Shown here in pieces: positions 1,743 through 30,041 of a DNA stretch of 64,000 bases; the first letter of the stretch is position 1; each line of letters opens with the position of its first letter. Position numbers and translations under genes: made by a program. Source of the stretch: a phage. The notes under the pieces were generated by a model. The model had not been told where the DNA came from and did no database searches. It saw only the letters and a list, made by a program, of their open reading frames with translations. The DNA lies in the sequence record PX418213.1. One strand, written 5' to 3'.

Positions 1743-1748
1743 TTAAAT

Positions 1749-2243: not shown

Positions 2244-2333
2244 TCATTAACTCCTTCATCAATTTATATAACTATTATATCAGAAATTTAAAGCAAAAGG
2301 CAAGTACATTTTTAAAAATTCTGTTTGGAGGAG

Positions 2334-2540: not shown

Positions 2541-2715
2541 GTTGTTTCTCCAGTTTCATCTTTAATAGTCTACAAATAAAATCAATGTCTTCATCCGTGC
2601 CTAGATCTCTGTCTTCAAGAGTTGCCTTGAAGTTTTTAGTCAATTCCATGAGGATAACTTCCCTAGAACGACGTGTTGGCGGAGGTGGATGTCTATACAT
2701 CTTATTTCCTTAATT

Positions 2716-2792
2716 TGGTAGGGGTGGTGGGATTCGAACCCACAAAACCTGAATTTTAAGTCCAGTACCTATGCCAATTCGATTACACCCCC
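2716..2792 (-). tRNA. tRNA with anticodon TAA (Leu-type reading) but short variable arm
   Basis: Acceptor gggggtg/cacccct; T-arm gtggg-ttcgaat-cccac; anticodon arm ctgga-CTTAAAA-ttcag; variable region only about 5 nt. Isotype uncertain. Confidence 0.5.
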
Positions 2793-2893
2793 ATGTAATC
2801 AGTTTATTAGTTGATACATATTATAGCCTAGTGAAAATCCTACTACTAGTCCCACAAACCAACCAATATAATAATCTTTTAGTTTCACAGGTA

Positions 2894-3079
2894 TTATCCT
2901 CTTTCAATATCTAGAGAAATACCACAGTTAGGATTAATACCTGTACCCTTGCAATTTGGGCAAATCCATATATTGCAAAAAGTATCTCCTGCTTCTGCAT
3001 CAGAACTTTCACCAATTCCCCTACACTCAGGGCAGGCGCATTCTTCTAGCTCTTGCTTGAGTTCTTGAAACTTGGACAT
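2894..3079 (-). CDS. small zinc-finger protein with two CxxCxGxG motifs (DnaJ-type)
   Basis: Translation contains CPECRGIG and CPNCKGTG. Confidence 0.45.
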   Translation of the reverse strand: MSKFQELKQELEECACPECRGIGESSDAEAGDTFCNIWICPNCKGTGINPNCGISLDIERG

Positions 3080-3088
3080 ATAGTCTCC

Positions 3089-3277
3089 TTAGTTAATTAC
3101 TTTTGAGGCTTCTAAAGCATTAACGTAGTAAACATCTTCTACATTATACATATAGTCTACTACTTTGTCCATAGCATGGAGTTCGGATGTAGCCTTTACT
3201 AGTCTGTACCCTTGTTTAAACTCGTCCGAACGTTCTCTATCTTGTGCAAATTTAACAGAAACTATGAATAATTCCAT
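3089..3277 (-). CDS. hypothetical protein (62 aa)
   Basis: ORF track only. Confidence 0.35.
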   Translation of the reverse strand: MELFIVSVKFAQDRERSDEFKQGYRLVKATSELHAMDKVVDYMYNVEDVYYVNALEASKVIN

Positions 3278-3296
3278 TAATTGTCCTTATTTAATT

Positions 3297-3374
3297 TGGT
3301 GGCTCCCCGAGGATTCGAACCTACGTACCTTCCGGTTATGAGCCGGGTGCTCATACCATATGAGCTTGAGAACC
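3297..3374 (-). tRNA. tRNA-Met/Ile-like (anticodon CAT)
   Basis: D-arm gctc-atatggtat-gagc; anticodon arm ccgg-CTCATAA-ccgg resembling Met tRNAs; acceptor ggttctc/gggagcc with two G-U; T-stem has only 3 clean pairs. Confidence 0.5.
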
Positions 3375-3380
3375 AAAATC

Positions 3381-3469
3381 TGGCGGAAGAAGTGGGAATC
3401 GAACCCACAAGGCTATATTTCAAACCGACAGATTAGCAATCTGCTGCAATACCGTTATGCTATTCTTCC
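3381..3469 (-). tRNA. tRNA-Ser (anticodon GCT), class II
   Basis: Perfect acceptor ggaagaa/ttcttcc; anticodon arm gcaga-TTGCTAA-tctgt; long extra arm; T-arm gtggg-ttcgatt-cccac; 89 nt with CCA. Confidence 0.7.
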
Positions 3470-3484
3470 GAATTTATAAGATAT

Positions 3485-3514
3485 ATTATATTAGAAATTT
3501 AGCTTCATAGCAAG
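3485..3514 (-). promoter_or_regulatory. sigma70-like promoter (minus strand)
   Basis: attata/agcaag pair with 18-bp spacer; upstream of tRNA-Ser and tRNA-Met-like. Confidence 0.45.
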
Positions 3515-4009
3515 AAAATTTTTCAAGTTTTCGGTAGACATCTCATCCATATCTACGGGAGAAACAAAGCCGTTTAATTTTCTAGCAAATTTTTCACCTG
3601 CAGGGTCATTATCCCCAACAGCTACCAATTTAAAAGGTAGTAATTTCAGTTGCTTTAATAATGCTTTTCCTGGAGAAGAACCCAACATTGCCAGGGCTGG
3701 ATAACCAGCGTTATGTAGCGCCACTGCCTTAAATACAGACTCAGCAATCAATACTACTTTTTCATCTCCATTGAGAGTTTCTAGTCCCCATACACACTGG
3801 GTAGTAGAATAAGTAAAATATTTAGCTTCAAAGGGGCACTTACCATGACCTTTTGGAGCAGAAGGATTATAAGTTTGATAGCCCCTCAACATCCCAGAGA
3901 AGTCATACAACGGGACTGTTAGCCATCCTTCCGGACTTAACCAGCAATGATATTTATCTGTATCAAATCCTCTAGATAAGAGGTGCTGTGTTAGCTCATC
4001 AACATTCAT
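3491..4009 (-). CDS. Toprim-domain protein
   Basis: Translation has the conserved Glu (LIAESV) and a DxD-type motif (VAVGDNDPAGEKFARKL). Start moved to the internal ATG at 4009 (MNVDEL) because the promoter -10 lies at about 4040-4045 and an AGAGGAA SD precedes it. Confidence 0.5.
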   Translation of the reverse strand: MNVDELTQHLLSRGFDTDKYHCWLSPEGWLTVPLYDFSGMLRGYQTYNPSAPKGHGKCPFEAKYFTYSTTQCVWGLETLNGDEKVVLIAESVFKAVALHNAGYPALAMLGSSPGKALLKQLKLLPFKLVAVGDNDPAGEKFARKLNGFVSPVDMDEMSTENLKNFLAMKLNF

Positions 4010-4039
4010 ATTTGGTTCCTCTCTCAAATTTATAGATAT

Positions 4040-4068
4040 ATTATACTGAGAATTTAGCATTCAAGCAA
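4040..4068 (-). promoter_or_regulatory. sigma70-like promoter (minus strand)
   Basis: attata/aagcaa with 17-bp spacer; upstream of the Toprim gene. Confidence 0.45.
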
Positions 4069-4184
4069 TCAAATTTTTTAACTTTTTAGAGGAAAATCAT
4101 AGGGCACTTAAGGGTAGCAGATAAGTGGTGAGGACCAAAATTTGTGACCCCACTAAAAATTCAGGGGCAATTTTTAAAGACCCC

Positions 4185-4213
4185 TTGACATTTTCGCTGG
4201 GGTAGTGTAAAGT
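4185..4213 (+). promoter_or_regulatory. sigma70-like promoter (plus strand): -35 TTGACA, about 17 bp, -10 TAAAGT
   Basis: ccTTGACAttttcgctggggtagtgTAAAGTat upstream of the counter-oriented cassette. Confidence 0.45.
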
Positions 4214-4274
4214 ATATGTTATGGATGAGTGATCAAAGAGACACACATTTTCTATATACTAGGAGGTGTCAAAA

Positions 4275-5261
4275 ATGACAGAAGAAGTAGCTAAGAGTCC
4301 TGAGACCGTCGCTAGCGTTGCAGCAGAACTGCACCGTCACGAGGAATCAGATAAGAAAAAGTGGGAGAAGGTCAGAGCCTACGAAGAAAAACATCGTGAA
4401 CACGATGATGAAGAAGATGACGATGATGAACATTGTCATAAATATGGAAAACATAAAATGCAAGAACCAGTAAACGTATTTACTAGTGGCTTCCCTGGCC
4501 TACTGGGTGGTTACCCAGCAAACGCAGGTGCTTTCGGTGGTGAAGGTATGGGACTATTCGGAGCTATCCTAATCGGTGCTCTATTAACAGGCGGATTCGG
4601 TGGATTCGGTGGATTCGGTGGACGTGGTATAGTTGGTGAAGGTACCGCAGTTGATGCAGTACTTCAGAACCAAGATACCGCTAGTATTCTAGCAGCTATT
4701 AACACTACTCGTACAGAAGCTAATCAGGGTACTGGGGCTGTTTTAAGCGCAGTTAACAATGGTTTTAGCCAGACATCCCAAAACCAGAGCCGTGATACTC
4801 AGTCTGTACTAACTACGATCTATGGTACAGGTGCTAATCTGTCTAATCAGATCTGCCAGGAAACTCGCAATGTTATTCAGGGTCAGTTCGATCTTTCTCG
4901 CCAGATTGATCAATCTTTCGCAGCTAATCAGATAGCTCGTGCACAAGATAAGTTTGATTCTGCACAGATCGCTTTCCAGCAGACTTTACAAACTAATAAC
5001 CAGTTTGCCGCTGTTCAGGCTCAGATGTGTGCTAACCAGAACTCTCTGGAACGTCAGATCGCTGAATGTTGCTGTGAACTTCAGACTGCGATCGCTGGTG
5101 TAACTACTGCGCGTATCCAGGATGAGTTAGACGCATGTCGCCTACGTGAAGCAATCGCTGCGGGTAGCGGTGCTAACGGTCAGGTAATTAATCAAATCGC
5201 TTTAAGTCTTGGTGCTATCACTCAGACTCTGGCTGGTCTGCAGGCTAAACTGCCGGCTTAA
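4275..5261 (+). CDS. hypothetical protein: acidic His-rich N-terminus, glycine-zipper hydrophobic segment, Gln/Asn/Thr-rich C-terminus
   Basis: AGGAGG SD at 4261-4266 then ATG 4275 (the track start at 4266 is GTG); GLFGAILIGALLTGGFGGFGGFGG segment; E. coli-like codon choice; plus-strand gene inside the minus-strand block. Confidence 0.55.
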   Translation: MTEEVAKSPETVASVAAELHRHEESDKKKWEKVRAYEEKHREHDDEEDDDDEHCHKYGKHKMQEPVNVFTSGFPGLLGGYPANAGAFGGEGMGLFGAILIGALLTGGFGGFGGFGGRGIVGEGTAVDAVLQNQDTASILAAINTTRTEANQGTGAVLSAVNNGFSQTSQNQSRDTQSVLTTIYGTGANLSNQICQETRNVIQGQFDLSRQIDQSFAANQIARAQDKFDSAQIAFQQTLQTNNQFAAVQAQMCANQNSLERQIAECCCELQTAIAGVTTARIQDELDACRLREAIAAGSGANGQVINQIALSLGAITQTLAGLQAKLPA

Positions 5262-5282
5262 TATTAAGGGGAGGAGCCCATT

Positions 5283-5699
5283 ATGAGTAAATATGGTTTT
5301 GTAAATAACGGACTTAATCAAAGTATGGGCTCCCAGCAGCCCGTTCCGGGTCTGGATAACCCCTACTTACAACAGTTGCAACAGCGTTTAGCAGAAGCGC
5401 AACAGATGCAGCAACAACTCCAGCAAAACCCTGGAAGTGTAAGTCCTATGCAAATGATGCAGCAAATGAGCGGGCAGTCGCAAATGTCTCAACAAATGCA
5501 GCAACAGATGCCGCAGCAGCAAGTTCAACAACAAACCCAACAACCGCAGGTTTCTGCGGAAGGACAGGCAGTACTAGCCCTTTTCGAAGACTTCGCAAAG
5601 ACAGAGGATGGGAAACAGCTTGTATCACTTATGGGTAAGTTTAATAGCTTCTGCCAAAGCCAAGTTGCAAAAGCTCAAAATGGTGGTAATAACTCCTAA
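5283..5699 (+). CDS. hypothetical Gln-rich protein (138 aa)
   Basis: GGGGAGGAG SD upstream of ATG; highly Gln-rich low-complexity translation; co-transcribed with the 4275 gene. Confidence 0.5.
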   Translation: MSKYGFVNNGLNQSMGSQQPVPGLDNPYLQQLQQRLAEAQQMQQQLQQNPGSVSPMQMMQQMSGQSQMSQQMQQQMPQQQVQQQTQQPQVSAEGQAVLALFEDFAKTEDGKQLVSLMGKFNSFCQSQVAKAQNGGNNS

Positions 5700-5708
5700 G
5701 GAGAAATT

Positions 5709-5903
5709 ATGTGTTGCAGAAAATCTGTTTCGTGCTGCCCAATGCCTGTAGCACGTTGTTGCTCTCCAGCAATGTTTACGCAAATACCGGCGTTCAATCC
5801 GTTTGCCTTTAAGCCTACTCTTATCCTGCCCCCTAGAGTGGATTTTCAGTCAAGATTGGCCTCCCGTATGGGTGGTTGCTGTACACCGAGAGTGTGGTTC
5901 TAA
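5709..5903 (+). CDS. hypothetical Cys-rich small protein (64 aa, 9 Cys)
   Basis: AAGGAG SD at about 5697-5702 then ATG 5709; CC pairs in translation; followed by a rho-independent terminator. Confidence 0.4.
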   Translation: MCCRKSVSCCPMPVARCCSPAMFTQIPAFNPFAFKPTLILPPRVDFQSRLASRMGGCCTPRVWF

Positions 5904-5915
5904 ACCAAAAACAAA

Positions 5916-5949
5916 AGCCCCTGCCGAAAGGTAAGGGGCTTTTTCTTTT
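5916..5949 (+). terminator. rho-independent terminator for the rightward cassette
   Basis: Hairpin agcccct/aggggct followed by ttttctttt. Confidence 0.6.
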
Positions 5950-5959
5950 GCCTTAAATA

Positions 5960-5994
5960 CAGAAAAGCCCGCGCTCTCGGAGGAAACGCGGGCT
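5960..5994 (-). terminator. rho-independent terminator (minus strand) after the SPFH gene
   Basis: Hairpin agcccgcg/cgcgggct; on the minus strand it is followed by TTTTCT. Confidence 0.55.
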
Positions 5995-6018
5995 TGGTTC
6001 GAAGATTACGTGTAACTA

Positions 6019-6966
6019 TTACTTGTTACGCATATCCATGATCATTTGACCATCGTAGCCAGTACCTACCACAGTCTGAGGTACACCACCTTGATATTTC
6101 TGAGCACGAATCATCTCAACTTCCAGTTGTTTCCAACGAATCATCTCAGGAGTAATAGTACGTTGCAATGCGGCGTTAGCTTCAGCTTCTTTCTTAGCTG
6201 CGTACAGTTTAGCATCTGCGTCACGTTCATTAGCAATAGCTTGGTTGTTGCGAGCTTCACGATCTGCTTCTGCTTGTTTAACCTTCTGCTGTGCTTCTTG
6301 TTCAACACGAGCCAGTTCAGCTTTTGCAGCATTAACTTGCTCTTCACGAACTTTGGTATTCTGTACCTGCTCCATGATTACCGGTGGCAAAGTAATATCC
6401 TGAAGGAACACCTGCTTAACTGTGTAACCATATGGGCGTGCATACTCTTCAACTTCCTGTTGAATTGCAGTTTGCAATTGAGCCTGAATTTTAGCATCAA
6501 ACAAATCTTGTGCTTTAGGTACAGACTTACCAAACTCACGAATAGTAGACAGTAATTTTTCAGTTACATATTTGTCTAACGCTTGATCCTGAGTACCTGC
6601 ATTAATACGGTTAATCGGTGCCTTAGAACCATCAAACTGCAACATAACAGTCAGGTCAACAGTGGATTTAAACTTATCCTGACTAGGAACCTGAAGTTTA
6701 TCTAATTTTAGAGCAATATCTTTTGTACTAAAAGTATCGAAAGAAGCAAAAGGATTTACAATATGAAAGCCGGGTAATACTGGATTAGGGTCTACTTTAC
6801 CCAGGAAAGTCTGGGTTTTAACAGTACCGTCTTGAACAACAGTATAGGAGTTAAGGGCCAGAACTAAACCTACCAAACCAACTGCAGCACCAATACCCCA
6901 ACGTTTGATATTACGCATCAATTTTTGCTCATAAGTCAGTTCTTTAGTGTTTTTAGTAGCAAACAT
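6019..6966 (-). CDS. SPFH/band-7 (prohibitin/stomatin-like) membrane protein
   Basis: N-terminal hydrophobic segment (IGAAVGLVGLVLAL), SPFH-like core, Ala/Glu/Gln-rich coiled-coil C-terminus; terminator hairpin downstream on the minus strand. Confidence 0.65.
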   Translation of the reverse strand: MFATKNTKELTYEQKLMRNIKRWGIGAAVGLVGLVLALNSYTVVQDGTVKTQTFLGKVDPNPVLPGFHIVNPFASFDTFSTKDIALKLDKLQVPSQDKFKSTVDLTVMLQFDGSKAPINRINAGTQDQALDKYVTEKLLSTIREFGKSVPKAQDLFDAKIQAQLQTAIQQEVEEYARPYGYTVKQVFLQDITLPPVIMEQVQNTKVREEQVNAAKAELARVEQEAQQKVKQAEADREARNNQAIANERDADAKLYAAKKEAEANAALQRTITPEMIRWKQLEVEMIRAQKYQGGVPQTVVGTGYDGQMIMDMRNK

Positions 6967-7000
6967 ATATTTCCTTTGTTTTAGTTACAGTTAATAAAAT

Positions 7001-7075
7001 TGGCCGAGGTGACAGGATTCGAACCTGCATAAAGGAATTTAGAAGACTCCTGCCTCTCCCTTAGACTACACCCCG
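7001..7075 (-). tRNA. tRNA-Arg (anticodon TCT)
   Basis: Acceptor cggggtg/cacctcg with one G-U; T-loop ggattcgaacc motif on +; anticodon arm ggagt-CTTCTAA-attcc; CCA encoded. Confidence 0.7.
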
Positions 7076-7083
7076 AAATTTAG

Positions 7084-7584
7084 TTATTTAATCAGATTAG
7101 CTTGACTTTCCACTGCTTCTGTAGCAGCTTTCTCAGCAATTCTAGCAGCTCGATTTGTCCTAGCTTTAGCAATTATCTTTTTATATTGTTCATCTATTAG
7201 ATCTTCTATCTCGTCATAGAATCTACATTGGTCTAGATAATTTATTGCATCAACATTATAAAGTTTTATATGTAATGCAGAGCTACGACCACCTTTCAAT
7301 GTGCTTTCTAAGATCTGTGGACGATAACGTCTAAGAGTATCTTTTGCCTTTTTAACTTCACCAGTTTCTTCTCCTAATTGGATTAGGTGATAAAGTCGGG
7401 TGTTATCAACGTAGTGCAGTTCAACACTGTGATATTCACCTTCACGAAGATTAAATCCGGTGAGTTTACTCATCTTTTCCTGTGCTTGTTCCAGTGTAAG
7501 CCGCTCCGTAAAATGAACTACGTACAGGATATGAGGACAACACATCTCTTGATGATCAAATATACAAGTAGTTCCTAGATTCAT
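7084..7584 (-). CDS. hypothetical protein (166 aa)
   Basis: ORF track; co-oriented. Confidence 0.5.
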   Translation of the reverse strand: MNLGTTCIFDHQEMCCPHILYVVHFTERLTLEQAQEKMSKLTGFNLREGEYHSVELHYVDNTRLYHLIQLGEETGEVKKAKDTLRRYRPQILESTLKGGRSSALHIKLYNVDAINYLDQCRFYDEIEDLIDEQYKKIIAKARTNRAARIAEKAATEAVESQANLIK

Positions 7585-8101
7585 AGATATATTTCCTATT
7601 CTAAGTATTTTTAAGAATTCTCATAAAAACTCTTAAAAATACAGACGATACCGGGAGAGTCATAAGTCTCACTCATTAAGTATTTCAAGACAAAATACGG
7701 TAACGTCTATTATTTTCCAGTTTAAGTCAGGGTGACTTAGTGGTTATGTCCTGCGGTATATTGAGGACTCGGTTAGGCTTGGGGTCATGACTTCCCACCT
7801 TTTGCTGCTACTCAACAGGAGTTATCGCGAATTACCTGTGCTATTGTGCACCATTAGTGACATCTCTCATGTCAGCATTTCCCACTTTGTGGATAGCTTG
7901 AAAAACTACTCCGATATGGAGAAAGAACTTCACTATCCTAGAATACCTTCTAAAGTTCTTCTTTAGCCTGGACATAGTTAAATCGTAATAAAACTATTCA
8001 GCAGACTGGTTGGTTAGTCTGGAACCAACTACCGCGTGGTTTAGGCAGTGCGCAACTAACCTCGGAAGCTTTTACGTTAAAAGCACCAGTTATCCAGTTC
8101 T

Positions 8102-8173
8102 TACCGACCGTAGGATTCGAACCTACATCTTCCACCAGTTACGACTTGATAATACCAATTATACTAGGACGGC
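8102..8173 (-). tRNA. tRNA-like element (degenerate; no clean anticodon arm, no CCA)
   Basis: T-arm gtagg-ttcgaat-cctac identical to that of the 830-912 tRNA; acceptor pairs 6 of 7; no convincing anticodon stem-loop found by hand. Confidence 0.3.
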
Positions 8174-14797: not shown

Positions 14798-15652
14798 TTA
14801 CACAGTGAATGGATATGCAATAGCAGGATGGTGTTTGTAACCACGAACAGTAAAATCATCCTTATTTACCCAGGTCAATACGTCCTCCAGAGTTCGGATA
14901 TTTGGATTGATTTCTAGAGTAGGAGGTGCAAAAGGTTCACGATCGAATTGCTTATGCTCCATCAAAACGTTATACTGATCCTCATAAATATGAAGATTGA
15001 TAATCTTCTGGCGTGCAATTCCTGGTTTAAGGCCTGTAATCTGTGCCATTAATGCTAGAAGCGTATAGCACTGAACCATGTTAAATACTTGGCCTAACAG
15101 GAAGTCATTAGATCTCTGGAAAGAGTTCAGATATAATGTATCTCCCAAAATAGAGAACTGATGAGTGTGCATACATGGACGTAAGCAACCCTTTGAGAAC
15201 TCTCCCGGATTCCAAAATGTTAGAATTTCCCCACGATCATCAATGCCCTTCTTCAGGTTATGATAAATCTTGGCTAGTTGGTCAAACATAAGACCATCGG
15301 AATTAGTCCACTGACGTCCTTGAACACCATAGACTCGTCCCATATCATCCTCACCTTTACGGTATGGATTGTCTAACCAAGCTAAGTTTTCATTTGCATT
15401 AGCATTCCATGTGTTAACACCAATAGCGCGGAATTGTGCTGCTGAATCATACCCGCGTAGATACCCAATCATTTCCATTATTGCTTGTTTTGCAAACGCC
15501 TTACGGGTAGTAATAAGTGGAAATTCACCTGCACCTACGTTAAAAGTAAAGTCTGCGTCAATAATAGTGAGGCAACGAACCCCCGTTCTAGGATTCGTTA
15601 CCCACTGACCTTCTGATAGAATACGTTTTCCAACTTCGATATACTGATCCAT
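14798..15652 (-). CDS. thyA: thymidylate synthase
   Basis: Active-site Cys context (RPCMHTHQF) and other ThyA-typical blocks ([17 protein letters not shown]). Confidence 0.9.
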
Positions 15653-19906: not shown

Positions 19907-20128
19907 TTATTCAATTACTTTAGCTCTAGCTACTTCTTTTAATAGAATATCTATGGAGGTGCTCAGCTCATTATAATTGAATGGTTTATTTGGATTTGAG
20001 GTTACAATTTTCCACGCTAGGGTTGTCTTAGGACTTTCTTCCCCTTCCTTACGTGTAATCATATTAGCAGCACTCAGTGAAGTACGATGTATTTTAGTTT
20101 TACGGCTCATATGAACGACGTTTCCCAT
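19907..20128 (-). CDS. hypothetical protein (about 74 aa)
   Basis: ORF track 19907..20197 trimmed to the ATG adjacent to the phoH stop; start uncertain. Confidence 0.35.
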   Translation of the reverse strand: MGNVVHMSRKTKIHRTSLSAANMITRKEGEESPKTTLAWKIVTSNPNKPFNYNELSTSIDILLKEVARAKVIE

Positions 20129-20129
20129 A

Positions 20130-20882
20130 TTACACCTTCCCCATGTCTTTAAAAATATCATAGAATGCTTTAGACTCAACAGAACGAACGTTATCAATCA
20201 ATTCGATCATTGAGAATGGGGCATTTTCGTATTTCTCATAGACTTCCATAAGGAGTGCTAGACCTGAGTCACCTTTAATGTCTTTCTGAGCTATATCTCC
20301 GCAGATAATTAAACGGCAGTCTTGTCCTACACGAGTTAGGAGACAAATCATTGCCTCAACGGAAATATTCTGAGCTTCATCGACAATTACATAGGAGTTG
20401 TTGAAAGTTCTGCCACGAGCATGTTCGATAGCCAAAAATTTAATTTTCTGACGTTCGACATATCCTTTATATGCATGATCGCCAATGGCCCATTTCATAC
20501 CATCAGCTATTGGCTCCAACCAAGGCTCTAGCTTTTCTGCTAGATCACCAGGAAGCATACCAAGAGACTTACCTAGAGGTTCATTAGGACGTACGAGAAT
20601 CACTTGCTCAATATCTGAGTGAATGTCTACGAGTTCCTGAGCTGCAAGAACGGACGGAATAAAGGTTTTACCAGTACCTGGCTCACCGATACCCACAGTC
20701 ACTGTGTTGTTCTTGATCATATTGATATATGATTTTTGCTCGCGGTTTTTACCTACTAGGGATTTAGCAACTGGGTTAGCGTAATCATTAGAAAAATCAG
20801 CCTGAATTACGTTATTCTCATATTTGTTGCCACGCTTTCTTGAACCATTGCGGTTCTCTCTTTTTTGACGTGCTTTTCCCAT
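20130..20882 (-). CDS. phoH: PhoH-like ATPase
   Basis: Walker A GEPGTGKT and PhoH-typical blocks; start at ATG 20882 preceded by AGGAG (track start 20891 is GTG). Confidence 0.85.
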   Translation of the reverse strand: MGKARQKRENRNGSRKRGNKYENNVIQADFSNDYANPVAKSLVGKNREQKSYINMIKNNTVTVGIGEPGTGKTFIPSVLAAQELVDIHSDIEQVILVRPNEPLGKSLGMLPGDLAEKLEPWLEPIADGMKWAIGDHAYKGYVERQKIKFLAIEHARGRTFNNSYVIVDEAQNISVEAMICLLTRVGQDCRLIICGDIAQKDIKGDSGLALLMEVYEKYENAPFSMIELIDNVRSVESKAFYDIFKDMGKV

Positions 20883-20955
20883 AAATAACACTCCTATAGT
20901 GTACTTCGCTAACAGAGGATCAACAAAAAGATCTTGTTTATCAACTTACAAATAT

Positions 20956-20984
20956 ATTATACCAATATATACAGTAAAAAGCAA
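20956..20984 (-). promoter_or_regulatory. sigma70-like promoter (minus strand) upstream of phoH
   Basis: attata/aagcaa with 17-bp spacer. Confidence 0.5.
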
Positions 20985-21176
20985 CTACAATTTTAAATAA
21001 GCCTATGATATTGCATTTAAATAAAAAATTTGCTTGCTTTTAACGTGAGATGTGTGATAATAGATAATCATTTTATATCGCGTACACGAGTGCGTGATTA
21101 TACAATTTTTAATAGAGATTGACAAATAAAATTTTTTGACTCAGATCATGTTACAGAACTTTATAGTAAAATATTG

Positions 21177-21205
21177 TTGACATCCGCCCTCGAATGAGTT
21201 ATAAT
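21177..21205 (+). promoter_or_regulatory. sigma70 promoter (plus strand): consensus -35 TTGACA, 17 bp, -10 TATAAT, upstream of nrdD
   Basis: TTGACAtccgccctcgaatgagtTATAAT; further TTGACA/TTGACT elements at about 21119-21141 suggest tandem promoters at the divergent junction. Confidence 0.6.
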
Positions 21206-21234
21206 AGTAGTCTTAGTTAGAAAAGGAGAGTATA

Positions 21235-23109
21235 ATGAATCGCAATGAAGAACTAAAGTATAAAGAAATGCAGGCGTTAATTAGAAACTGCAAAGAGATT
21301 ATCGAAGGGTCAGCAGATGAAGAGCTGCTGTTTAATAATGCCAATAAACCCTCAGAACGTTTCCCTACACAAAGGGATATGCTTGCAGGTGAATTGAGTA
21401 AGTATCTAATTCTAGAAGAAATGCCAATTCAGATTCGAAATGCTCATATGATTGGGGATATTCATTTCCATGATGCCGATTATGCTGCATTAGGCATGAC
21501 TAACTGTTGTCTGGTAGCTCTGGAAGATATGTTGAAGAATGGTATGAAGGTTGGTAATGCTGAAATTAGCACTCCAAACTCTATCACTACTGCGGCGGCT
21601 ATTACTGCTCAGATTATCACTCAGGTTAGCTCCCATCAGTATGGTGGTACTTCTGTAGATCGCCTTGATGAAGTATTAGCCCCTTATGTTCGTAAATCCT
21701 ATGATAAAAATCATGCGTTTGCAAAACGTTGGACTAAGGATGAAGCCAAAGCATCCGTAATGGCTACGGAGATGACTGAAAAAGAAGTCTATGACGCTTG
21801 TCAGGGTTTAGAATATGAAATCAATACCATGTTCAACTCTAATGGTCAGAGTCCATTTATTACCTTTGGTTTTGGTCTAGGAACTTCTTGGGAAGCACGT
21901 CTAGTACAGAAAGCAATACTGAAAGTACGCATGGATGGTTTAGGTATCAATAAACGTACAGCTATCTTCCCGAAACTGGTATTTGTACTTCGTGATGGTG
22001 TTAACATGAAACCAGGAGATGTTAATTATGACATCAAGAAGTTAGCTATGAAATGTACTGCTGAACGTATGTATCCAGATTATATTAGCTATGACAAGGT
22101 TGTAGAAGTTACTGGAGACTATAAAGTTTCTATGGGCTGCCGTTCATTCCTAGCTGCTACAGAAGATGGTGAAACTGCCGGTCGTAATAACTTAGGTGTT
22201 GTTTCTGTAAACTTGCCTAGAATTGCTATCGAAGCTGAAGGAAATATTGACCTATTCTTTGATTTGCTTGAGCTACGTGTGGATACAGCATTAAAAGCGT
22301 TGGAGTGGAGAGTTGATCGCTTAAAATACATTCAAGCTAAAGCTGCACCCATCCTCTATATGTCAGGAGCCTTTGGGTTACGCTTGGGGCCTGATGAATA
22401 TGTATTCGATCATTTCTATAACCGTGCTTCTGTATCTCTAGGGTATATTGGCTGCCATGAAATGCTACAGTTCATGTTTGGCAAAGATGTAGACACAATG
22501 TCCGAGACCTGCATCAAGTTTGTTCAGCGTGTATTGCAGTACATGCGAGATAGAGTCGATCAGAAGAAGGAAGAGACTAAGTTAGGTTATAGCCTGTATG
22601 CTACACCGTCAGAGTCCCTATGCGATCGTTTTTGTCGTCTAGACCGTGAGTATTTCCCGGAGCATGAAGATATTCTGTCCAAAGGATACTACACTAACTC
22701 TCACCACCTTGATGTGGAACGTAAAGTTGCTCCCAATGTGAAATTTGATTATGAATCTAACTTTACGCCTATTGCCTCTGGTGGGTGTATTTCCTATGTA
22801 GAACTACCGGATATGAAACGATTCCCAGATGCGCTGGAATGGGTTATTAATTATGCTGCTAGTAAGGTTCATTACTTCGGTATTAATACTCCAGTGGATT
22901 CTTGTGGTAAATGTGGATTCTTAGGTGAAACAATAGCATCCGAAGATGGATTTAAGTGCCCTATCTGTGGTAATCATGACCCCGAAACTCTTGAAGTAAC
23001 TCGTCGAGTTTGTGGGTATCTTGGAAATCCGGGTGCTCGTCCATTTAACCCTGGCAAACAGCACGAGGTTATGGGCAGAGTGAAGCATCAGGATATTCGA
23101 GCTAAATAA
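21235..23109 (+). CDS. nrdD: anaerobic ribonucleoside-triphosphate reductase (class III)
   Basis: C-terminal glycyl-radical motif RVCGYLG preceded by Cys cluster CGKCGF...CPICGN; AAAGGAGAG SD. Confidence 0.85.
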   Translation: MNRNEELKYKEMQALIRNCKEIIEGSADEELLFNNANKPSERFPTQRDMLAGELSKYLILEEMPIQIRNAHMIGDIHFHDADYAALGMTNCCLVALEDMLKNGMKVGNAEISTPNSITTAAAITAQIITQVSSHQYGGTSVDRLDEVLAPYVRKSYDKNHAFAKRWTKDEAKASVMATEMTEKEVYDACQGLEYEINTMFNSNGQSPFITFGFGLGTSWEARLVQKAILKVRMDGLGINKRTAIFPKLVFVLRDGVNMKPGDVNYDIKKLAMKCTAERMYPDYISYDKVVEVTGDYKVSMGCRSFLAATEDGETAGRNNLGVVSVNLPRIAIEAEGNIDLFFDLLELRVDTALKALEWRVDRLKYIQAKAAPILYMSGAFGLRLGPDEYVFDHFYNRASVSLGYIGCHEMLQFMFGKDVDTMSETCIKFVQRVLQYMRDRVDQKKEETKLGYSLYATPSESLCDRFCRLDREYFPEHEDILSKGYYTNSHHLDVERKVAPNVKFDYESNFTPIASGGCISYVELPDMKRFPDALEWVINYAASKVHYFGINTPVDSCGKCGFLGETIASEDGFKCPICGNHDPETLEVTRRVCGYLGNPGARPFNPGKQHEVMGRVKHQDIRAK

Positions 23110-23788: not shown

Positions 23789-23978
23789 TGGTTTAAATGC
23801 CGCTTTGGAAAATGCATTAATGCAGCAGTGGGAAACTGGCTATAAGGATGGTGTTGAATCCTGTGCTACTATGCTAGAAGTTATTGCTAATACCTTAATG
23901 GAGAAAGGCAATAAAGAATTAGCTGAGCTATTAGACAGTATTGGGCAAAACTTCAGAGAACAGGTGAAAAATGCGTAG
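23757..23978 (+). CDS. hypothetical protein (73 aa)
   Basis: ORF track; GAGGAG SD upstream. Confidence 0.45.
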   Translation: MAFSKPMLPDNGLNAALENALMQQWETGYKDGVESCATMLEVIANTLMEKGNKELAELLDSIGQNFREQVKNA

Positions 23979-24789
23979 ATTAATTATTATTAGCGGTGCA
24001 GGTTTGAGTGTTGAAAGTGGTGTACGAGCTTTTCGTACTGATACTACTAGTGGTAAAGCACTGTGGGATGACTATGATCTAGAAGAAGTATGTAATATTC
24101 ATGCCTTTCGTGGTAATTTTTATCATAAAACCCATATGTTTTACAACAAGCGTCGTGAAGAGCTAAAAACTGTTGAACCCAATCTTGCGCATTTGCGTAT
24201 TGGTGAATGGTATAAACAATATCCAGGTCAAGTAGTAAACTTGACTACCAACGTTGATGACCTTATTGAGCGTGCTGGAGTTCCACATAGTGACATTCTG
24301 CACATTCACGGATATTTAAAAGAGGTTGTTGTAGCTGATAGCTACAATAGTAGCAATAAACGGATTATTGATGTAGGATACAATTCTGTTGATCCAGATG
24401 ATTATAAATGGGTTAAACCTAATGTAATCTTCTTTGGAGAGCATGCTCCTGCATACGCAGAAATGTATAATGTTTTTGATGGTATTACCAGTCAAGATAT
24501 GATCATTGTGGTTGGTTGCTCTAACCAAGTAATTAACTTCTACTGGGAATTATTTCCTGTTCTTAATTTGACTGCTGCGAAACTTATGGTTGTTAACTAT
24601 TATGATAGTGCCCTAGCGGCGGAACCGGGCTATCAAGGTATGACTCGTAGTGAGATGTACCAGCTGGAAGAACGTGGTATCCCTTACTGGAGTAAAGGTG
24701 CAGTAGATGCTTTCAGTGATCCTGATTTTATTGCTCGTGTAGAAGCTCATTTAGAGGGTAGACCTTATGTGTCGAGAAGCAAGAAATAA
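23971..24789 (+). CDS. Sir2 (sirtuin)-family NAD-dependent protein
   Basis: N-terminal NAD-binding motif ISGAGLSVESGVRAFR, catalytic His context (ILHIHGYL), VIFFGE and IVVGCS blocks. Confidence 0.65.
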   Translation: MRRLIIISGAGLSVESGVRAFRTDTTSGKALWDDYDLEEVCNIHAFRGNFYHKTHMFYNKRREELKTVEPNLAHLRIGEWYKQYPGQVVNLTTNVDDLIERAGVPHSDILHIHGYLKEVVVADSYNSSNKRIIDVGYNSVDPDDYKWVKPNVIFFGEHAPAYAEMYNVFDGITSQDMIIVVGCSNQVINFYWELFPVLNLTAAKLMVVNYYDSALAAEPGYQGMTRSEMYQLEERGIPYWSKGAVDAFSDPDFIARVEAHLEGRPYVSRSKK

Positions 24790-24964
24790 TGAATGGGATA
24801 TTTTTATAACTGAGTCTGGCACTTGGTGTTATAGGTTTGCCTACAGGTTTGCCTACAGGTTTCCTAGTGTAAGAAAACGGTTGGGATACGCATATAAAAT
24901 TATCTATACTATGGATAATATATGGTTATCCTCTGGAGATGAGGAGAAACAGGTATGTCCATAG
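24767..24964 (+). CDS. hypothetical small protein, paralog of the next ORF (shared DIF..G.WCYR motif)
   Basis: DIFITESGTWCYRF here versus DIFVWADGSWCYRC in 24955..25137; contains a 12-bp tandem DNA repeat. Confidence 0.4.
   Translation: MCREARNNEWDIFITESGTWCYRFAYRFAYRFPSVRKRLGYAYKIIYTMDNIWLSSGDEEKQVCP
24831..24864 (+). repeat. short tandem direct repeat (12-bp unit ctacaggtttgc, about 2.8 copies)
   Basis: ataggtttgc ctacaggtttgc ctacaggtttcc read directly. Confidence 0.6.
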
Positions 24965-25137
24965 TTAAATCTGTGTATACACATCCAGATGATATATTTG
25001 TATGGGCGGATGGTAGTTGGTGCTATCGCTGTGAGCTGTGGGAAATGGATTATAAATCCGATGACTATGGTGTTATATATGTTGATACGGTTGAGTATGA
25101 TACGTTCTTAGAAAGGAACAGAAATGGAAATAAGTAA
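24955..25137 (+). CDS. hypothetical small protein, paralog of the previous ORF
   Basis: Shared motif; GAGGAGAAACAGG SD then ATG. Confidence 0.4.
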   Translation: MSIVKSVYTHPDDIFVWADGSWCYRCELWEMDYKSDDYGVIYVDTVEYDTFLERNRNGNK

Positions 25138-25630
25138 TACTCCAATTATTTTTCTAGACATTGATGGGGTGCTCAATTCGAGCATCTCCCACCATCATGC
25201 ACCTGACGATGAGAAGATTTTCTTTGGAAGTGATTGGGTTTTCAAACCGCTTCTCAAGGCTTTTCAGGACTTTATTCGTCCTTCTCCAATAATGATTGTT
25301 GGAGTATCATCTTGGTTCTCTGTCAGAAATGAGATGGAGAACGTTCGGATTATGACCGGATTAGGTCTTATCGATCGTTTTCTTGGTACAACGGATTTTA
25401 CTGGTGGTGGATTATCTAGGGGTAATTCTGTTCTTCGTTTCGTCGAAAAGCATAAGCTCAAACATTGGTGTGTACTTGATGATGCGGGTGCTATGATGTA
25501 TCAGTATCCAACGGTTATAGTCAACGGTAGAACTGGGATAAATCTTCAAGATTTAAAAGCTGTTAGCTATATGCTAGAATTTAGCCCAGATCTTGAAATG
25601 TGTAAATCCTTACAACAATTTAAGGTGTAA
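25124..25630 (+). CDS. HAD-superfamily phosphatase-like protein
   Basis: N-terminal HAD motif I (IIFLDIDGVLNSS); AAAGGAACAGAA SD. Confidence 0.55.
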   Translation: MEISNTPIIFLDIDGVLNSSISHHHAPDDEKIFFGSDWVFKPLLKAFQDFIRPSPIMIVGVSSWFSVRNEMENVRIMTGLGLIDRFLGTTDFTGGGLSRGNSVLRFVEKHKLKHWCVLDDAGAMMYQYPTVIVNGRTGINLQDLKAVSYMLEFSPDLEMCKSLQQFKV

Positions 25631-26070: not shown

Positions 26071-26463
26071 ATGGAACAAGTATATTGGCGTCAGATTGAC
26101 CCTAGTTTGGTGAAACGTGCGGAGAAGCTGCTACAACGTTGGTTGGGGGTAAGACAAGCCTCCTTCACTTTTCCGGAACAGCAAATAGATGACCCCTGCA
26201 TTGGTGTTTTCCTGTCTGGATATGCCGGGGAATGGGAATTGGATTGGAATGAATTGTCTGCTATGGGCTTGATTGTTGCCCTAAACTTCTCTATATTCCA
26301 TCCACGTGGTTTGGCCATATGTCGTGTGCCTGATGACGGTTGTTCGCCCCATCTTTTACAGGTGGAAGATGATATTTGGGAGTACACTCCAGATATTCTC
26401 AAAGAGGCTAAAGAACAATTAAACCGTGTTGGGATATATGTTCCGGGATTAAATGATGAATAA
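26071..26463 (+). CDS. hypothetical protein, tandem paralog B
   Basis: See paralog A; AAGGAGG SD upstream. Confidence 0.5.
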   Translation: MEQVYWRQIDPSLVKRAEKLLQRWLGVRQASFTFPEQQIDDPCIGVFLSGYAGEWELDWNELSAMGLIVALNFSIFHPRGLAICRVPDDGCSPHLLQVEDDIWEYTPDILKEAKEQLNRVGIYVPGLNDE

Positions 26464-26650
26464 GGAATTTTGGAAAATAAAAGGTAAGATTTCTAAGTGG
26501 AATACTACAGGGAAAATTAGTAAGTCTCTAGAGATAGAGATAGCTAGAATGTTTACTGATCCTGATTTTGATATAGGAAAGCTAAGTAAAGTAGATGCTA
26601 AAAAAGTAGATAAGTATATGGAAGAGATTAGAAGTATTTTAAGTGTCTAA
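26453..26650 (+). CDS. hypothetical small protein (65 aa)
   Basis: ORF track; followed by a terminator hairpin at about 26659-26683. Confidence 0.4.
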   Translation: MMNKEFWKIKGKISKWNTTGKISKSLEIEIARMFTDPDFDIGKLSKVDAKKVDKYMEEIRSILSV

Positions 26651-27254
26651 TCCACATAACCGAGTCATTTTGGCTCGGTTTTACCCGTACTCAAGACCAA
26701 TGATAGCACCATCCGGAAAATTTTACTTGCAGGATGCCCAAAATCTTGATATAATATTTATATTGAATTGAGAGACATTAGTAAAAATTGATTTTGCTAA
26801 TTTTTCTTGTTTACAATCCGCGATACGGAACAGTTAGGCTGCCCCATTAAGGGTTGTTTTAACTGTTACGTGTTAGTTTTTAAACAAATAATTAATAGAA
26901 TACTTAGCGATCTACATCCCGTAGGAACCCTGGTAAGGCCTCGAAGCAACCTAGTGTGAGGTGGTTGTGAAGTGAGACGGGAAGAGTGAAAAACTCTGAG
27001 AAGTGATGACGTAAGGTATACTACATCTAGTATGAGCTAGTACATGAAGCATTAGGTGAGCAAATCTGGCTTAGCGGCCATCCTCAAGGATTTGTGCGGT
27101 ATAGTGAAGCGGCAGTGTAGCGTGAAAGGGGAAGTTGCCACCCCCCTTCAGTATTTGCGATTAATTTGTTGAGAAATTGACAGTAACAGTTGTTCTATTC
27201 TTTCTGAATAGTCCTAAAGAAAACTTATTTCATTTCCAACACAGGAGTATTGTT

Positions 27255-30041
27255 GTGTTCTCAATCCTACAAGGTCATGCAGGATTTCATCGCGATTTAG
27301 CCACAGGCAATTGGCGAGAAGTTAAAGCAGAAGACTATCTTTTTGCTAAAAGATTTTCCTCAAAGCATCCTGAAGGTAAACCAGCTTCAATGCCCTTCAA
27401 GTTTGATGTAATTGATGAAGTTGATCCTCAAACCCTAGTAGAAATGCTTCCTCTTATGAGACGTTTAACGTCTGACCCTCATATCGTTGCGGTACGAGGT
27501 CGATGTCTTGCACCTAAAAATAATGTGCGACGTAAGAAGGGCAACTTTAATATATCTAACCCAAGTCATATAATTGCAATGGACGTGGATGGTATTGTAG
27601 ATACAGGTGGTTGTAACAAGTTTGATCTTGTTGGCATGGCTCGACATATTATTAGAATGTTAAATAGTATTAGTGAGGATATGTTTCCTCTTGATGCAGG
27701 GTTTATTGCTCATGCATCGTCTTCGGCTGGACTAAAACCAGGTATCCGAATGCACTTAATACTAGAATCTAATGTTAAAGTAACTCAGGGTCAAATCAAA
27801 TTCTTATTTACATCTATCAACGAAAGTAGTAGACAAAAGTATGGCTTTGATATTGCCGACTTAGCCTATTACTCTTCCGTACAGCTCCATTACTTTGCAG
27901 ATCCGTTATTTATCGATGGTATAGTAGATCCGTTTAAAGCGGAGGGTGCTTCACGTCTGGTATTTGTTAAGGGTTCTAAAGTAAATTTACCCAATAATCT
28001 GGTTGACTATGAAACAACTAGGGGTGAGTTTAAAGAGGAGTTTTACTCTTTACTCGATCAAATTAAAGGTAAAAAAGCTGCCTCTGATAAAGTAGAGGAA
28101 ACTATCAGCGAACTAGAAGAAGCTGAGGATGGAGTGTATCTACGTATCATACCTAAACTCTATCACAGAGCTTTAGAGGATGGTGTTGACTTTGCATGGC
28201 TAGAAAAAGAAATCCGTCCAGCCTTATCAGAGTATATTGCAACTAAAGATAATAGTCGTAATATTCAAGATTACTTTAATAACGGTCGTAAACAGGCTCT
28301 GAAAGCATTTGTTAATAATTCTAAACGTGATATACCGGATGTTTTAAAAGGTATTCCACTTAAAAAACTAGAAACTAATTCTCTAGAAACTGATAACTTC
28401 TTGAAATTAAATACTGTACCACCAGAAGGTTATATGACTTTTGTAAAAGCAAGTCTAGGTACAGGTAAAACTACAGCGGTTGTGCGTTGGTTAGACTCAG
28501 GAGTTATTAAAGGTAATTTCTTAGCAATTACCAATACTAGAGCGCTAGTATCTTCAAATGCTAAGAAATTTAGTGCAGGACAATATGATAAGTCTGTAGA
28601 TATGCTTAATTTTAAGCGTGGTGCTATTGACCGTATGTCCACAACTATTCACTCTTTGCATAAGTTCAAGAGTTTTATTGGTCAAATTGATGCAATCTTT
28701 ATCGATGAATGTGATGCTGTAATGAATGACCTATTATTCGCCCCGGTTGTTAAACAACGTCGTGAATGTATTCAGGTTCTTCGAGACATTCTTGCAACTG
28801 CAAAAATCATTATATTATCTGATGGGGATATTAGTGCAGAAACAATTGAAGCATATGGTTCTTTGATTGAGTTTGATAAACCGGTTGCATTTTATAATCA
28901 TCACCGTAAAATGCTATCAAAAGCTCATGCTTATGAGTTCCCGGATGAATCCAGTATTTGGGTTGCACTTCAGACTTCTCTAGAGATGGGTGAGAAATCT
29001 ATCCTAGTATCTGACTGTGGGCCGGATGAACTGAATGAGAAGGGCATGGCATTACGTCGTAATACGGGTGCGTTAGTTAAGGAAATCCACTCAAACTCTA
29101 CGTCTGATGTAGATATTCGACGTATTCTGGATTACACAACTAATGAGCTAATTGATCAACAAATTGATTGCTTATTATGTAGTCCATCGGTAACAAGTGG
29201 TGTTGACTTTAACTACTTTGATAACGTATTCGTTATTACTAGAACCTCAAACCAAGCGCCAAACATGCGTTTCCAAGCAATCAGGCGCGACCGTGGTGCT
29301 CAGAACATTTATTATTTTATTGATAAATCTACGAGTGGGTTCTCCGCAGGTTCTGAGCAATATAACATTGATGAAGGTTGGCTGGAGTTAGCACAGCAAT
29401 TATACGCACGTCGCAGGGAGCTGGAATCTAGAAACTATACTAGTACTCTACGTTATTACTTGCTTGATCAGGGTGCAACTATTGATATTTTCAGTGAAAG
29501 CTGGGGAAATATCGAAGGTGCAGGAAAAGAGTATACGGAAGAGCGAATCAAAGCTATTTTGTATTCAACTCCTGATTATTGTGCTCCACGCCATGCAGAT
29601 GCGTATGAAGCTAAACTACTTCTTGTTCGCTATTACCATCTTGAGTCTATTAAAGATGTAACAGTTGAGCATGTTGAACAATATATCAAAGATAAACCGA
29701 ATGATCGAGCTGCATTCTTCCATAAGATGCACGAGATGTTCTGGGAAGATATTAAGAAGTGTTCAAATGTCACTATCAAACCCTTTATAGAAGCTCTGAA
29801 AGGTAAGAAGAAAGATTTCTTCCTTAAAACAGGTCAGAGTGCTAACCCAAAATATGCGAGAATGTATCTTGGTATGATGGGTATTGGCAAGGATATGAAC
29901 ACGGAGAATATTGTAGACTGGTACAGAACCTATTGTAAAATCGAGTGTATGCCAATCCCCCTAAAATTCATGACAGAGGAAGAGAAGGCCATGGCAGAAG
30001 AAGTAATGTCCGAACTTGGAGCAACCAATGAAGATACATAA
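27255..30041 (+). CDS. SF2-type helicase/ATPase, putative replication origin-binding protein
   Basis: Walker A (ASLGTGKTTAV), Walker B (IFIDECD), helicase motif (LLCSPSVTSGVDF); start taken as GTG at 27255 after AGGAG; the upstream track extension lacks an SD. Role inferred from position. Confidence 0.6.
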   Translation: MFSILQGHAGFHRDLATGNWREVKAEDYLFAKRFSSKHPEGKPASMPFKFDVIDEVDPQTLVEMLPLMRRLTSDPHIVAVRGRCLAPKNNVRRKKGNFNISNPSHIIAMDVDGIVDTGGCNKFDLVGMARHIIRMLNSISEDMFPLDAGFIAHASSSAGLKPGIRMHLILESNVKVTQGQIKFLFTSINESSRQKYGFDIADLAYYSSVQLHYFADPLFIDGIVDPFKAEGASRLVFVKGSKVNLPNNLVDYETTRGEFKEEFYSLLDQIKGKKAASDKVEETISELEEAEDGVYLRIIPKLYHRALEDGVDFAWLEKEIRPALSEYIATKDNSRNIQDYFNNGRKQALKAFVNNSKRDIPDVLKGIPLKKLETNSLETDNFLKLNTVPPEGYMTFVKASLGTGKTTAVVRWLDSGVIKGNFLAITNTRALVSSNAKKFSAGQYDKSVDMLNFKRGAIDRMSTTIHSLHKFKSFIGQIDAIFIDECDAVMNDLLFAPVVKQRRECIQVLRDILATAKIIILSDGDISAETIEAYGSLIEFDKPVAFYNHHRKMLSKAHAYEFPDESSIWVALQTSLEMGEKSILVSDCGPDELNEKGMALRRNTGALVKEIHSNSTSDVDIRRILDYTTNELIDQQIDCLLCSPSVTSGVDFNYFDNVFVITRTSNQAPNMRFQAIRRDRGAQNIYYFIDKSTSGFSAGSEQYNIDEGWLELAQQLYARRRELESRNYTSTLRYYLLDQGATIDIFSESWGNIEGAGKEYTEERIKAILYSTPDYCAPRHADAYEAKLLLVRYYHLESIKDVTVEHVEQYIKDKPNDRAAFFHKMHEMFWEDIKKCSNVTIKPFIEALKGKKKDFFLKTGQSANPKYARMYLGMMGIGKDMNTENIVDWYRTYCKIECMPIPLKFMTEEEKAMAEEVMSELGATNEDT

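Follow-up and report, generated by a model that had tools for sequence, protein, structure and literature searches.

In the genome of the phage deposited as PX418213.1, of which a stretch of 64,000 nucleotides was analysed (the window), we observed a non-coding interval (26650-27254) that is bounded on its 5' side by a terminator hairpin and on its 3' side by the GTG start codon (27255) of a gene for the orthologue of the T5 D2 helicase. A sigma-70 promoter within the interval is conserved in every relative, and the region is therefore best explained as the 5' leader, approximately 493 nt long, of the helicase mRNA. Comparison of related sequences strongly supports the prediction that this leader folds into a large, evolutionarily maintained plus-strand RNA of roughly 330-400 nt with at least 13 helices. 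The phage is T5-like and belongs to the genus Tequintavirus: 700 bases at the locus are 99% identical to Tequintavirus phages of Salmonella and Escherichia (SaI_NFG_5581, Spc35 and Th1), the locus query matched 536 phage records in total, and the T5-type tRNA cluster is also present in the window.

An earlier note on this DNA had described the interval as structured. The sequence alone folds no better than shuffled versions of itself (26880-27180; z -0.45 on the plus strand and -1.66 on the minus strand) and has no Rfam match, and that description therefore needed comparative evidence; the structure is not demonstrable from the single sequence and was demonstrated by comparison only. The window and T5 agree at every position of the promoter and of the leader's first ~110 nt (100% identity) and at nearly every position of its last ~70 nt; the ~300 nt in the middle cannot be aligned except at an invariant GCTTAGCGGC, and yet the length and helices of this part are retained. 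The 33 loci obtained from IMG/VR represent five sequence types, to which Stitch, phiR2-01, My1 and L090 were added from GenBank phages and a metagenome contig; protein-anchored scans of metagenomes and IMG/VR gained few further types. All types consist of short conserved islands between variable stretches of fixed length, which is a signature of structured RNA, and on comparing the types we observed nested helices with compensatory changes. MAFFT misaligns the head of the fold across types, and an alignment made by hand was used, comprising 11 sequences (seven independent types and four close variants) in 50 blocks, with each segmentation reproducing the genomic sequence exactly. In this alignment, both partners have changed in 68 of the 80 pair columns, and standard pairs fill 694 of the 695 cells. 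G·U pairs number 61 as against a single A·C, and the folded strand is therefore the plus strand, the sense strand of the helicase.

Since a hand alignment is biased towards pairing, the structure was tested with covariance models that were blind to the types they were asked to find. The first (R1), built from three A-type sequences only, gave full-length matches at syntenic coordinates in all other types, T5 included (E from 2e-4 to 1e-41), and matched the heads of T5 and Stitch although these have no alignable sequence in common with it. In the R1 alignment, 95.8% of the cells are paired (69.2±1.1 in shuffles) and 49 of 60 pairs show changes on both sides (28.8±2.9 in shuffles), while sliding the pairing partner by 1-3 columns lowers pairing to 35-42%. 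The reciprocal model (R2), derived from the B-type only, matches the head in the window at 26907-27144 with an E of 3e-5. It also gave a short, heavily deleted match at 15036-15092 of the window (15.6 bits, E 0.004), which is probably a mere hairpin within a minus-strand gene. A third model (R3) was built from the A, I, E, F and D types, with the B and C types held out, and matches the held-out T5 (2.7e-6), the Stitch type (5.5e-7) and phiR2-01 (1.9e-13). Its test alignment, which consists of the four held-out B/C sequences, one D-type relative and a partial Providencia match, has 89.6% of cells paired (67.3±2.2 in shuffles), with helices P1, P2 and P6 at 100%. Models derived from the A-type align the interior of the B/C types imperfectly, and the per-helix numbers for P3 and P5 are therefore weaker. 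An independent RNAalifold run recovers P1-P8, with compensatory changes in 47 of 62 pairs. Structure prediction and conservation, which the earlier note had named as checks, thus show a plus-strand fold conserved by compensatory change across types.

The fold consists of two 5' hairpins (L1 and Pa), an AU-rich stalk of ~45 bp (P0), a multi-junction head of 217 nt (P1-P7), and the hairpins P8 and P9. Its predicted elements, all on the plus strand, are the following.

26770..26808, plus strand: L1, 5'-proximal AU-rich hairpin with a U-rich tract after it (local fold)
26813..26857, plus strand: hairpin Pa, with a near-invariant apex GGAACAGU-UAG-GCUGCC and a covarying basal stem
26860..26906, plus strand: 5' strand of the P0 stalk, pairing almost end to end with 27147-27192
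26907..27123, plus strand: head domain, 217 nt (hand alignment, covariance models R1-R3, RNAalifold)
26907-09 and 26912-16 with 27116-20 and 27121-23, plus strand: P1, the long-range helix closing the head, with a conserved AU bulge (26910-11)
26918-26981, plus strand: P2 three-way junction (P2, P2a, P2b)
26983-26997, plus strand: hairpin P3
26998-27005, plus strand: conserved GAGAAGUG after P3
27017-21 with 27099-103, plus strand: P4, junction carrying P5 and P6
27024-46, plus strand: P5
27060-67 with 27088-95, plus strand: P6, enclosing P7
27068..27079, plus strand: hairpin P7, GGC-UUAGCG-GCC, with the hexaloop UUAGCG
27124..27149, plus strand: hairpin P8, GAA-A-GGGG / CCCC-UUC with loop AAGUUGCCACC, on the stalk beside P1
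27147..27192, plus strand: 3' strand of the P0 stalk (covariation and duplex energy)
27195..27211, plus strand: small hairpin P9, CUAUUC-UUUCU-GAAUAG, between the stalk and the ribosome-binding site

The dimensions of the fold vary little: the head measures 216-226 nt in all types, the span from P0 to P0 is 319-339 nt across types, and the end of the stalk lies 54-64 nt from the helicase start codon in nine sequences. The fully covarying core of P0 pairs 26860-69 with 27183-92, and all 14 pair columns of the stalk carry compensatory changes across types. The duplex is formed end to end in 9 of 9 sequences, with energies of -25 to -38 kcal/mol and z values of -3.0 to -6.0 relative to shuffles of the inner segments; the AT-rich segments 26870-26906 and 27147-27182 pair with each other in the RNA. 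Within the head, the hexaloop UUAGCG of P7 and its closing G-C/C-G pairs are present in all Markadamsvirinae types examined, Providencia and Proteus phages included, and the P7 stem covaries (GAC/GUC in My1, AGC/GCU in phiR2-01, GCC/GGU in Stubb). Compensatory variants are likewise found in P8 (GUGG/CCAC, AUAUGA/UCAUAU and GAUUAGG/CCUAGUC), and variants in P9 (CUAUC/GAUAG in Sugarland, AUACUAU/AUAGUAU in L090 and CUUUCC/GGAAAG in DU_PP_V), the latter lying ~45 nt upstream of the ribosome-binding site. The basal stem of Pa is ACAAUCC/GGGUUGU in the window and CCGAGCAU/AUGCUUGG in Sugarland, and local folding gives Pa the same shape in the window and in the homologous loci L027, L061 and L026. 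The L1 stretch is 100% identical between the window and T5, and its counterpart in Sugarland, DU_PP_V and My1 is a long hairpin of different sequence. Two candidate pairings were discarded. A prolongation of P4 by a helix UACA/UGUG gave way to a longer P6, with which all types are consistent, and a pseudoknot between the UUAGCG loop (27071-27076) and UGCUAA on the 3' strand of L1 (26795-26800) was rejected because Sugarland and L090 have no UGCUAA partner, although the A, B, DU_PP_V and My1 types do.

Some A-, B- and C-type relatives (L025, L011, L032 and L074, ~950-1050) carry a 97-nt insertion between the hairpins L1 and Pa. By alignment, the site falls between 26800 and 26801 of the window, which, like T5, is without it. 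The insertion is flanked by TTTTTCTT direct repeats and has a hairpin of its own (AUUUACGG...CCGUAAAU); it is either a small mobile module or the reflection of a slippage deletion.

The inverted repeat aacagtta...taactgtt cited in the earlier note exists, as acggaacagtta (26825-36) and taactgttacgt (26860-71), and we term it I2; what did not stand is its status as an evolutionarily maintained pairing. Its 5' arm belongs to hairpin Pa, and its 3' arm (26860-69, UAACUGUUAC) is the 5' strand of P0. In Stitch-type phages, a G-to-A change in the 26860-69 arm is offset by a C-to-U change at 27187 while the 5' copy is unchanged, and T5 shows the G·U intermediate at this pair. The P0 sequences of phiR2-01, Sugarland, DU_PP_V and My1 are wholly different yet mutually complementary. 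The local hairpin 26825-36/26860-71 was accordingly discarded as a conserved pairing: its 3' arm covaries with 27183-92, and DU_PP_V and My1 are unable to form it.

A long inverted repeat such as the stalk could in principle be extruded from DNA, and the head is a mosaic, a block swapped between otherwise near-identical phages; both features would suit a structure at the DNA level (a cruciform or single-strand hairpins) or a recombination hotspot without RNA function. We regard this as very improbable. The excess of G·U over A·C is strand-specific, and the complementary strand would have ~9% mismatches; nested long-range helices and multi-way junctions over 333 nt are typical of RNA; and the length and all the helices are kept despite complete sequence turnover, unlike what a neutral hotspot would leave.

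The leader is predicted to be transcribed from the following promoter.

26727..26755, plus strand: sigma-70 promoter (-35 TTGCAG at 26727-32, 17-bp spacer, extended -10 TG at 26747-48, -10 TATAAT at 26750-55)

The TATAAT noted earlier at about 26750 is thereby confirmed as part of a complete promoter, whose pattern TTGCnn-N17-TATAAT is kept in all sequence types, the distant ones included, and the T5 record annotates a promoter at the homologous place. Its hexamers, its spacing within 16-18 bp and its conservation in relatives identify it, as judged from sequence, as a putative sigma-70 promoter; a simple promoter scan missed it because the -35 element matches at 3 of 6 positions only. The predicted transcription start is near 26762. 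From the -10 hexamer to the start codon there are 493 bases in the window and 495 in T5, a difference of two bases only. A terminator scan called no terminator between the fold and the helicase gene, and P8 is not followed by a U-tract. Two candidates for a promoter closer to the helicase gene were rejected: TTGACA at 27177-82 has no -10 element, and the TATAAT of the Pectobacterium phages belongs to the stalk. One promoter-like match on the minus strand (26642-26613) lies outside the leader, and no conserved antisense promoter was seen.

The leader was said to lack a credible open reading frame (ORF) over ~570 bp, and this holds for ~575 bp. Automated annotation lists three hypothetical proteins in the interval in some records, and several GenBank records show ORFs of 42, 50 and 38 aa, so that the apparent conservation might be taken for that of small coding sequences. 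We find this scarcely credible. The short ORFs start with TTG or GTG (50 aa from TTG, 26807-26959; 38 aa from GTG, 27056-27172) and match no Pfam family; their position, length and frame are not kept among relatives, one of which has no plus-strand ORF of at least 25 aa in the leader at all; and the substitutions are paired compensatory changes without codon periodicity.

Directly behind the leader lies the gene on which it may act.

27244..30041, plus strand: Shine-Dalgarno sequence AGGAG (27244-48) and helicase gene (GTG 27255, 928 aa), identified by Pfam, phrog_3712, PDB and annotations

The product, annotated "replication origin binding protein" as the orthologue of T5 D2, is a UL9-like helicase of superfamily 2 (SF2). 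PF02399 (Herpes_ori_bp, SF2 core) matches residues 394-533 (E 3e-7), with a Walker A motif GTGKT at residues 402-406, and this combination of Herpes_ori_bp core and Walker A places the protein among the SF2 UL9-like origin-binding helicases; it also matches phrog_3712 and, at an E of 2e-5, the herpesvirus origin-binding proteins of the PDB. The T5 D2 helicase has been characterised biochemically (PMC3632103). In comparison with T5, the helicase of the window is essentially unchanged over its C-terminal ~350 residues (one segment of 50 residues stands at 96%), and its N-terminal ~550 residues show 66-96% amino acid identity and a third-position identity of 0.56-0.76, with the sharpest dip at residues 351-400, just before the Walker A motif. 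The diverged block of the gene (27255-28900, compared with 28900-30041) is contiguous with the swapped head of the RNA. Divergence between A- and B-types reaches its maximum in the head and decays over the first ~550 helicase codons, the 5' leader being 100% identical. This co-divergence of head and helicase N-terminal part suggests a co-adapted RNA-protein pair, i.e. autoregulation by the helicase.

From these observations, the reading we favour, in which we place about even confidence, is that the fold would work as RNA and in cis, influencing how the helicase and the downstream replication genes are expressed. A role in cis is favoured because the element is always found in this leader in the same orientation, because neither a terminator nor a second conserved promoter lies between element and gene, and because the divergence of the head continues into the N-terminal part of the helicase. 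In the likeliest mechanism, the head would be a platform to which a phage protein binds; since the head co-diverges with the N-terminal half of the helicase, that protein would be the prime candidate ligand. The stalk, long and imperfect, would be a probable RNase III-type processing site, at which cleavage would release the head and give the helicase mRNA a new 5' end close to P9; a largely continuous duplex of at least ~20 bp between distant flanking segments, as RNase III stalks have, is predicted with covariation in 9 of 9 sequences. The proposal of an origin or leader RNA, as made in the earlier note, thus divides: the promoter, the absence of an intervening terminator or ORF and the compensatory changes speak strongly for a regulatory leader, and the origin half is without direct support.

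Several points weigh against a cis-acting role. The start site, the processing and the stability of the RNA are all inferred, and the folding energy of the single sequence is unremarkable. The terminator scan and local folds revealed no conserved pairing that sequesters the Shine-Dalgarno sequence and no terminator/antiterminator alternative. The autoregulatory operators known so far are simpler than this fold; in the phages of Providencia and Proteus, the fold lies ~170-300 nt further from the start codon, which argues against a mechanism that needs exact spacing to the ribosome-binding site; and the co-divergence of head and helicase could represent one shared recombination block. A pairing of the 5' leader with the Shine-Dalgarno/start region was considered and is not conserved. 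A riboswitch or attenuator was also rejected: junctions and loops differ between types (J3/4, for example, is GAGAAGUGAUGACGUAAGG in one and CAGCGAAUGGCGGCAC in another), there is no expression platform, P8 lacks a U-tract and no pairing with the Shine-Dalgarno sequence is seen.

The stalk also lends itself to a different explanation, in which RNase III would cut out the head (P1-P8, ~250 nt). The stable RNA so released would act in trans, for example on a phage or host protein for which it would be a scaffold or a decoy, and would lie in the helicase leader only for the sake of early expression. An imperfect duplex of 40-45 bp surrounds a compact domain in all types, the domain has the hallmarks of a three-dimensionally folded RNA (fixed length, multi-way junctions, A-rich loops and very few invariant bases), and the modules appear separable, given that the distance to the start codon varies in the phages of Providencia and Proteus and that a 97-nt indel is found upstream. 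However, in every Markadamsvirinae genome examined the element stands directly upstream of the helicase in the same orientation, and we found no second or free-standing copy in the window or among the IMG/VR pattern matches; we consider a stand-alone RNA unlikely, though worth keeping in view.

We hold as similarly doubtful that the transcript from the promoter is an origin-associated RNA, either a structured, G-rich pre-primer or R-loop RNA or an RNA partner of D2 by which the primary T5 origin is marked or opened. The element directly precedes the gene of a UL9-like helicase thought to initiate replication (PMC3632103). It is located at 48.5-48.9% of the T5 genome, and its AT-rich stalk arms (26870-26906 and 27147-27182) flank the head. 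The first-round origin of T5 was reportedly placed near the centre of the molecule by Bourguignon and colleagues in 1976. The transcript is G-rich, as the G-rich blocks mentioned in the earlier note had indicated: 26900-27150 is richer in G+C and in G (GC content 0.43-0.54, GC skew from +0.15 to +0.49). The co-divergence of the head with the N-terminal half of the helicase is what would be expected of an origin/initiator specificity module, and the leader length of ~490 nt resembles the promoter-to-origin distance of ColE1 RNA II. On the other side, there are no iterons or repeated binding sites, no conserved DnaA box and no marked RNA-to-DNA transition point, and the transcript must run on into the helicase gene because there is no second conserved promoter. 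The nearest switch in GC skew is ~6 kb off and is explained by gene orientation.

A double-stranded DNA origin of the iteron/DnaA-box type was rejected on the same grounds: all direct repeats in the region are two-copy repeats of 8-17 nt at chance level, and the sole DnaA-box-like 9-mer (26648-56) is absent from T5. The GC-skew and repeat analysis proposed in the earlier note gave no iterons and no skew switch at the locus (26.6-27.3 kb), the cumulative skew having its minimum at ~20-21 kb. We stress that GC skew mostly tracks transcription in phages, so that this minimum decides neither for nor against an origin. It coincides (~20000-21300) with divergent transcription, the minus-strand genes ending at 20891 and the plus-strand genes starting at 21235; a second turn of the skew is located near 49-50 kb. 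A more specific proposal seems to us less likely still: the machinery that initiates T5 replication would include the fold as an RNA component, which would be transcribed beside the N-terminal half of D2, co-evolve with it, and recruit or load D2 at the central origin or prime the first round. If true, a classical double-stranded DNA phage would possess an origin/initiator specificity module that depends on RNA.

Known systems resemble the element in part. As in rRNA-type and T7/lambda RNase III stalks, the flanks of a compact domain are predicted to pair over ~40-45 bp with small internal loops, and the element, like the latter, precedes a gene in an early phage transcript; however, the domain enclosed here by a predicted duplex is a 217-nt RNA and not an rRNA, and the T7 R-sites, which are simple hairpins, carry no large head. 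ColE1 RNA II and the T4 oriF/oriG transcripts share with it a promoter ~0.5 kb (~490 nt) upstream, a long, untranslated, G-rich structured RNA and the proximity of replication functions. Here, in contrast, the transcript doubles as helicase mRNA and has no sequence or Rfam similarity to these; neither an antisense promoter like that of RNA I nor a defined RNA-DNA transition was found, and only the geometry is like that of ColE1. The T4 gene 32 pseudoknot and gene 43 operator are likewise RNA structures located in cis in the 5' leader of a replication gene, and the co-variation with the N-terminal half of the helicase would suit a protein-RNA pair of the T4 autoregulatory kind, but those operators measure 20-80 nt as against a predicted ~330-400 nt with at least 13 helices. 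In size class, in multi-junction architecture and in the retention of structure while sequence drifts, the element is comparable to GOLLD, ROOL, HEARO, OLE and raiA, and, in being phage-encoded with very few invariant bases, to phi29 pRNA. Unlike all of these, it matches no Rfam model, has its helices arranged differently, stands within an mRNA leader and is confined to T5-like phages in our pattern scans of IMG/VR and GTDB.

Phages in which the fold was demonstrated are those of Tequintavirus, Epseptimavirus and Sugarlandvirus, together with DU_PP_V and My1 of Pectobacterium, with helicases as little as 74% identical. By hand inspection only, we also recognised the stalk (CUAACCACAUA/UAUGUGGUUAG), a B-like P2 domain, P4 and P6/P7 in Providencia phages (helicase 65%), and P6/P7 with the same UUAGCG loop and a covarying stem in the Proteus phage Stubb (helicase 66%). 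Models R1-R3 detected nothing beyond a local P6/P7 match in Providencia, Proteus, Vibrio, Aeromonas and Enterobacter relatives. In the Demerecviridae of Vibrio, Aeromonas and Enterobacter, 700-1270 nt of ORF-poor, purine-rich sequence with different motifs precede the helicase homologue (loci L075, Vibrio phage phi 3, 330-1428; L076, Brizo, 660-1371; L077; L078), and two Vibrio genera share the motifs GGUAACUG...AUGAC.CG.AAAUGC...GGAGGUA and GUGACUAACC; these leaders may represent a related or a second structured RNA family. Scans of IMG/VR and GTDB genomes with the pattern GAGAAGTG-N55-85-GCTTAGCGGC returned known T5-like contigs plus chance matches only.

The Rfam scan suggested in the earlier note yielded no family for the leader at gathering or permissive thresholds. 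Of the 4227 models of Rfam 15, only tRNAs exceeded the gathering threshold in the window; 26600-27300 gave only chance snoRNA/sraA fragments at E up to 10, and the leaders of 11 homologous loci gave nothing at E up to 0.1. In the GenBank records that we examined, the interval carries no annotation other than a promoter, a terminator or spurious ORFs, and in the searchable literature we found neither a description of this leader nor a mapped T5 origin. In general kind the element is familiar, a structured mRNA leader or large structured RNA, but as an RNA family it is new, and its size and architecture are unusual. T5 has been a model phage since the 1940s. In more than 500 sequenced relatives, the interval is empty or filled by spurious small ORFs, and the fold corrects the annotation throughout the subfamily. 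It adds, in an easily manipulated system, a class of large structured RNA with at least 12 covarying helices that is outside Rfam; and, through its mutable helices and its invariant UUAGCG loop, it offers a handle on the expression or targeting of the presumed initiator helicase, at a locus adjoining the least understood step of T5 replication. Two natural "alleles" of the head, moreover, co-vary with the helicase N-terminus.

Upstream of the leader are small early genes, whose operon is ended by the following feature.

26658..26684, plus strand: intrinsic-terminator-type hairpin (stem 26658-67 / 26671-80, then TTTT; inverted repeat I7)

The terminator was placed correctly (~26659-26683) in the earlier note. 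Its arms are AACCGAGTCA/TGGCTCGGTT (26658-26680), followed by TTTT; a simple terminator scan did not call it, but a homologous terminator is annotated in T5 (AY543070) and in HASG4, and in the alignment the hairpin is kept in relatives with compensatory variants. In T5, the terminator comes directly after the T5.107 homologue. A 65-aa ORF of the window (26453-26650), which has no Pfam match, overlaps the end of the DUF7415 gene and is absent from T5. The tRNA cluster comprises 11-13 genes on the minus strand at 203-8173, as is typical of T5-like phages, with Rfam tRNA matches at 3300-3374 and 8102-8173 that were not called by ARAGORN. Two adjacent upstream genes (23971-25630, with homology to L001 723-2031) are annotated as Sir2 NAD-dependent deacetylases in a phage with 99% identity.

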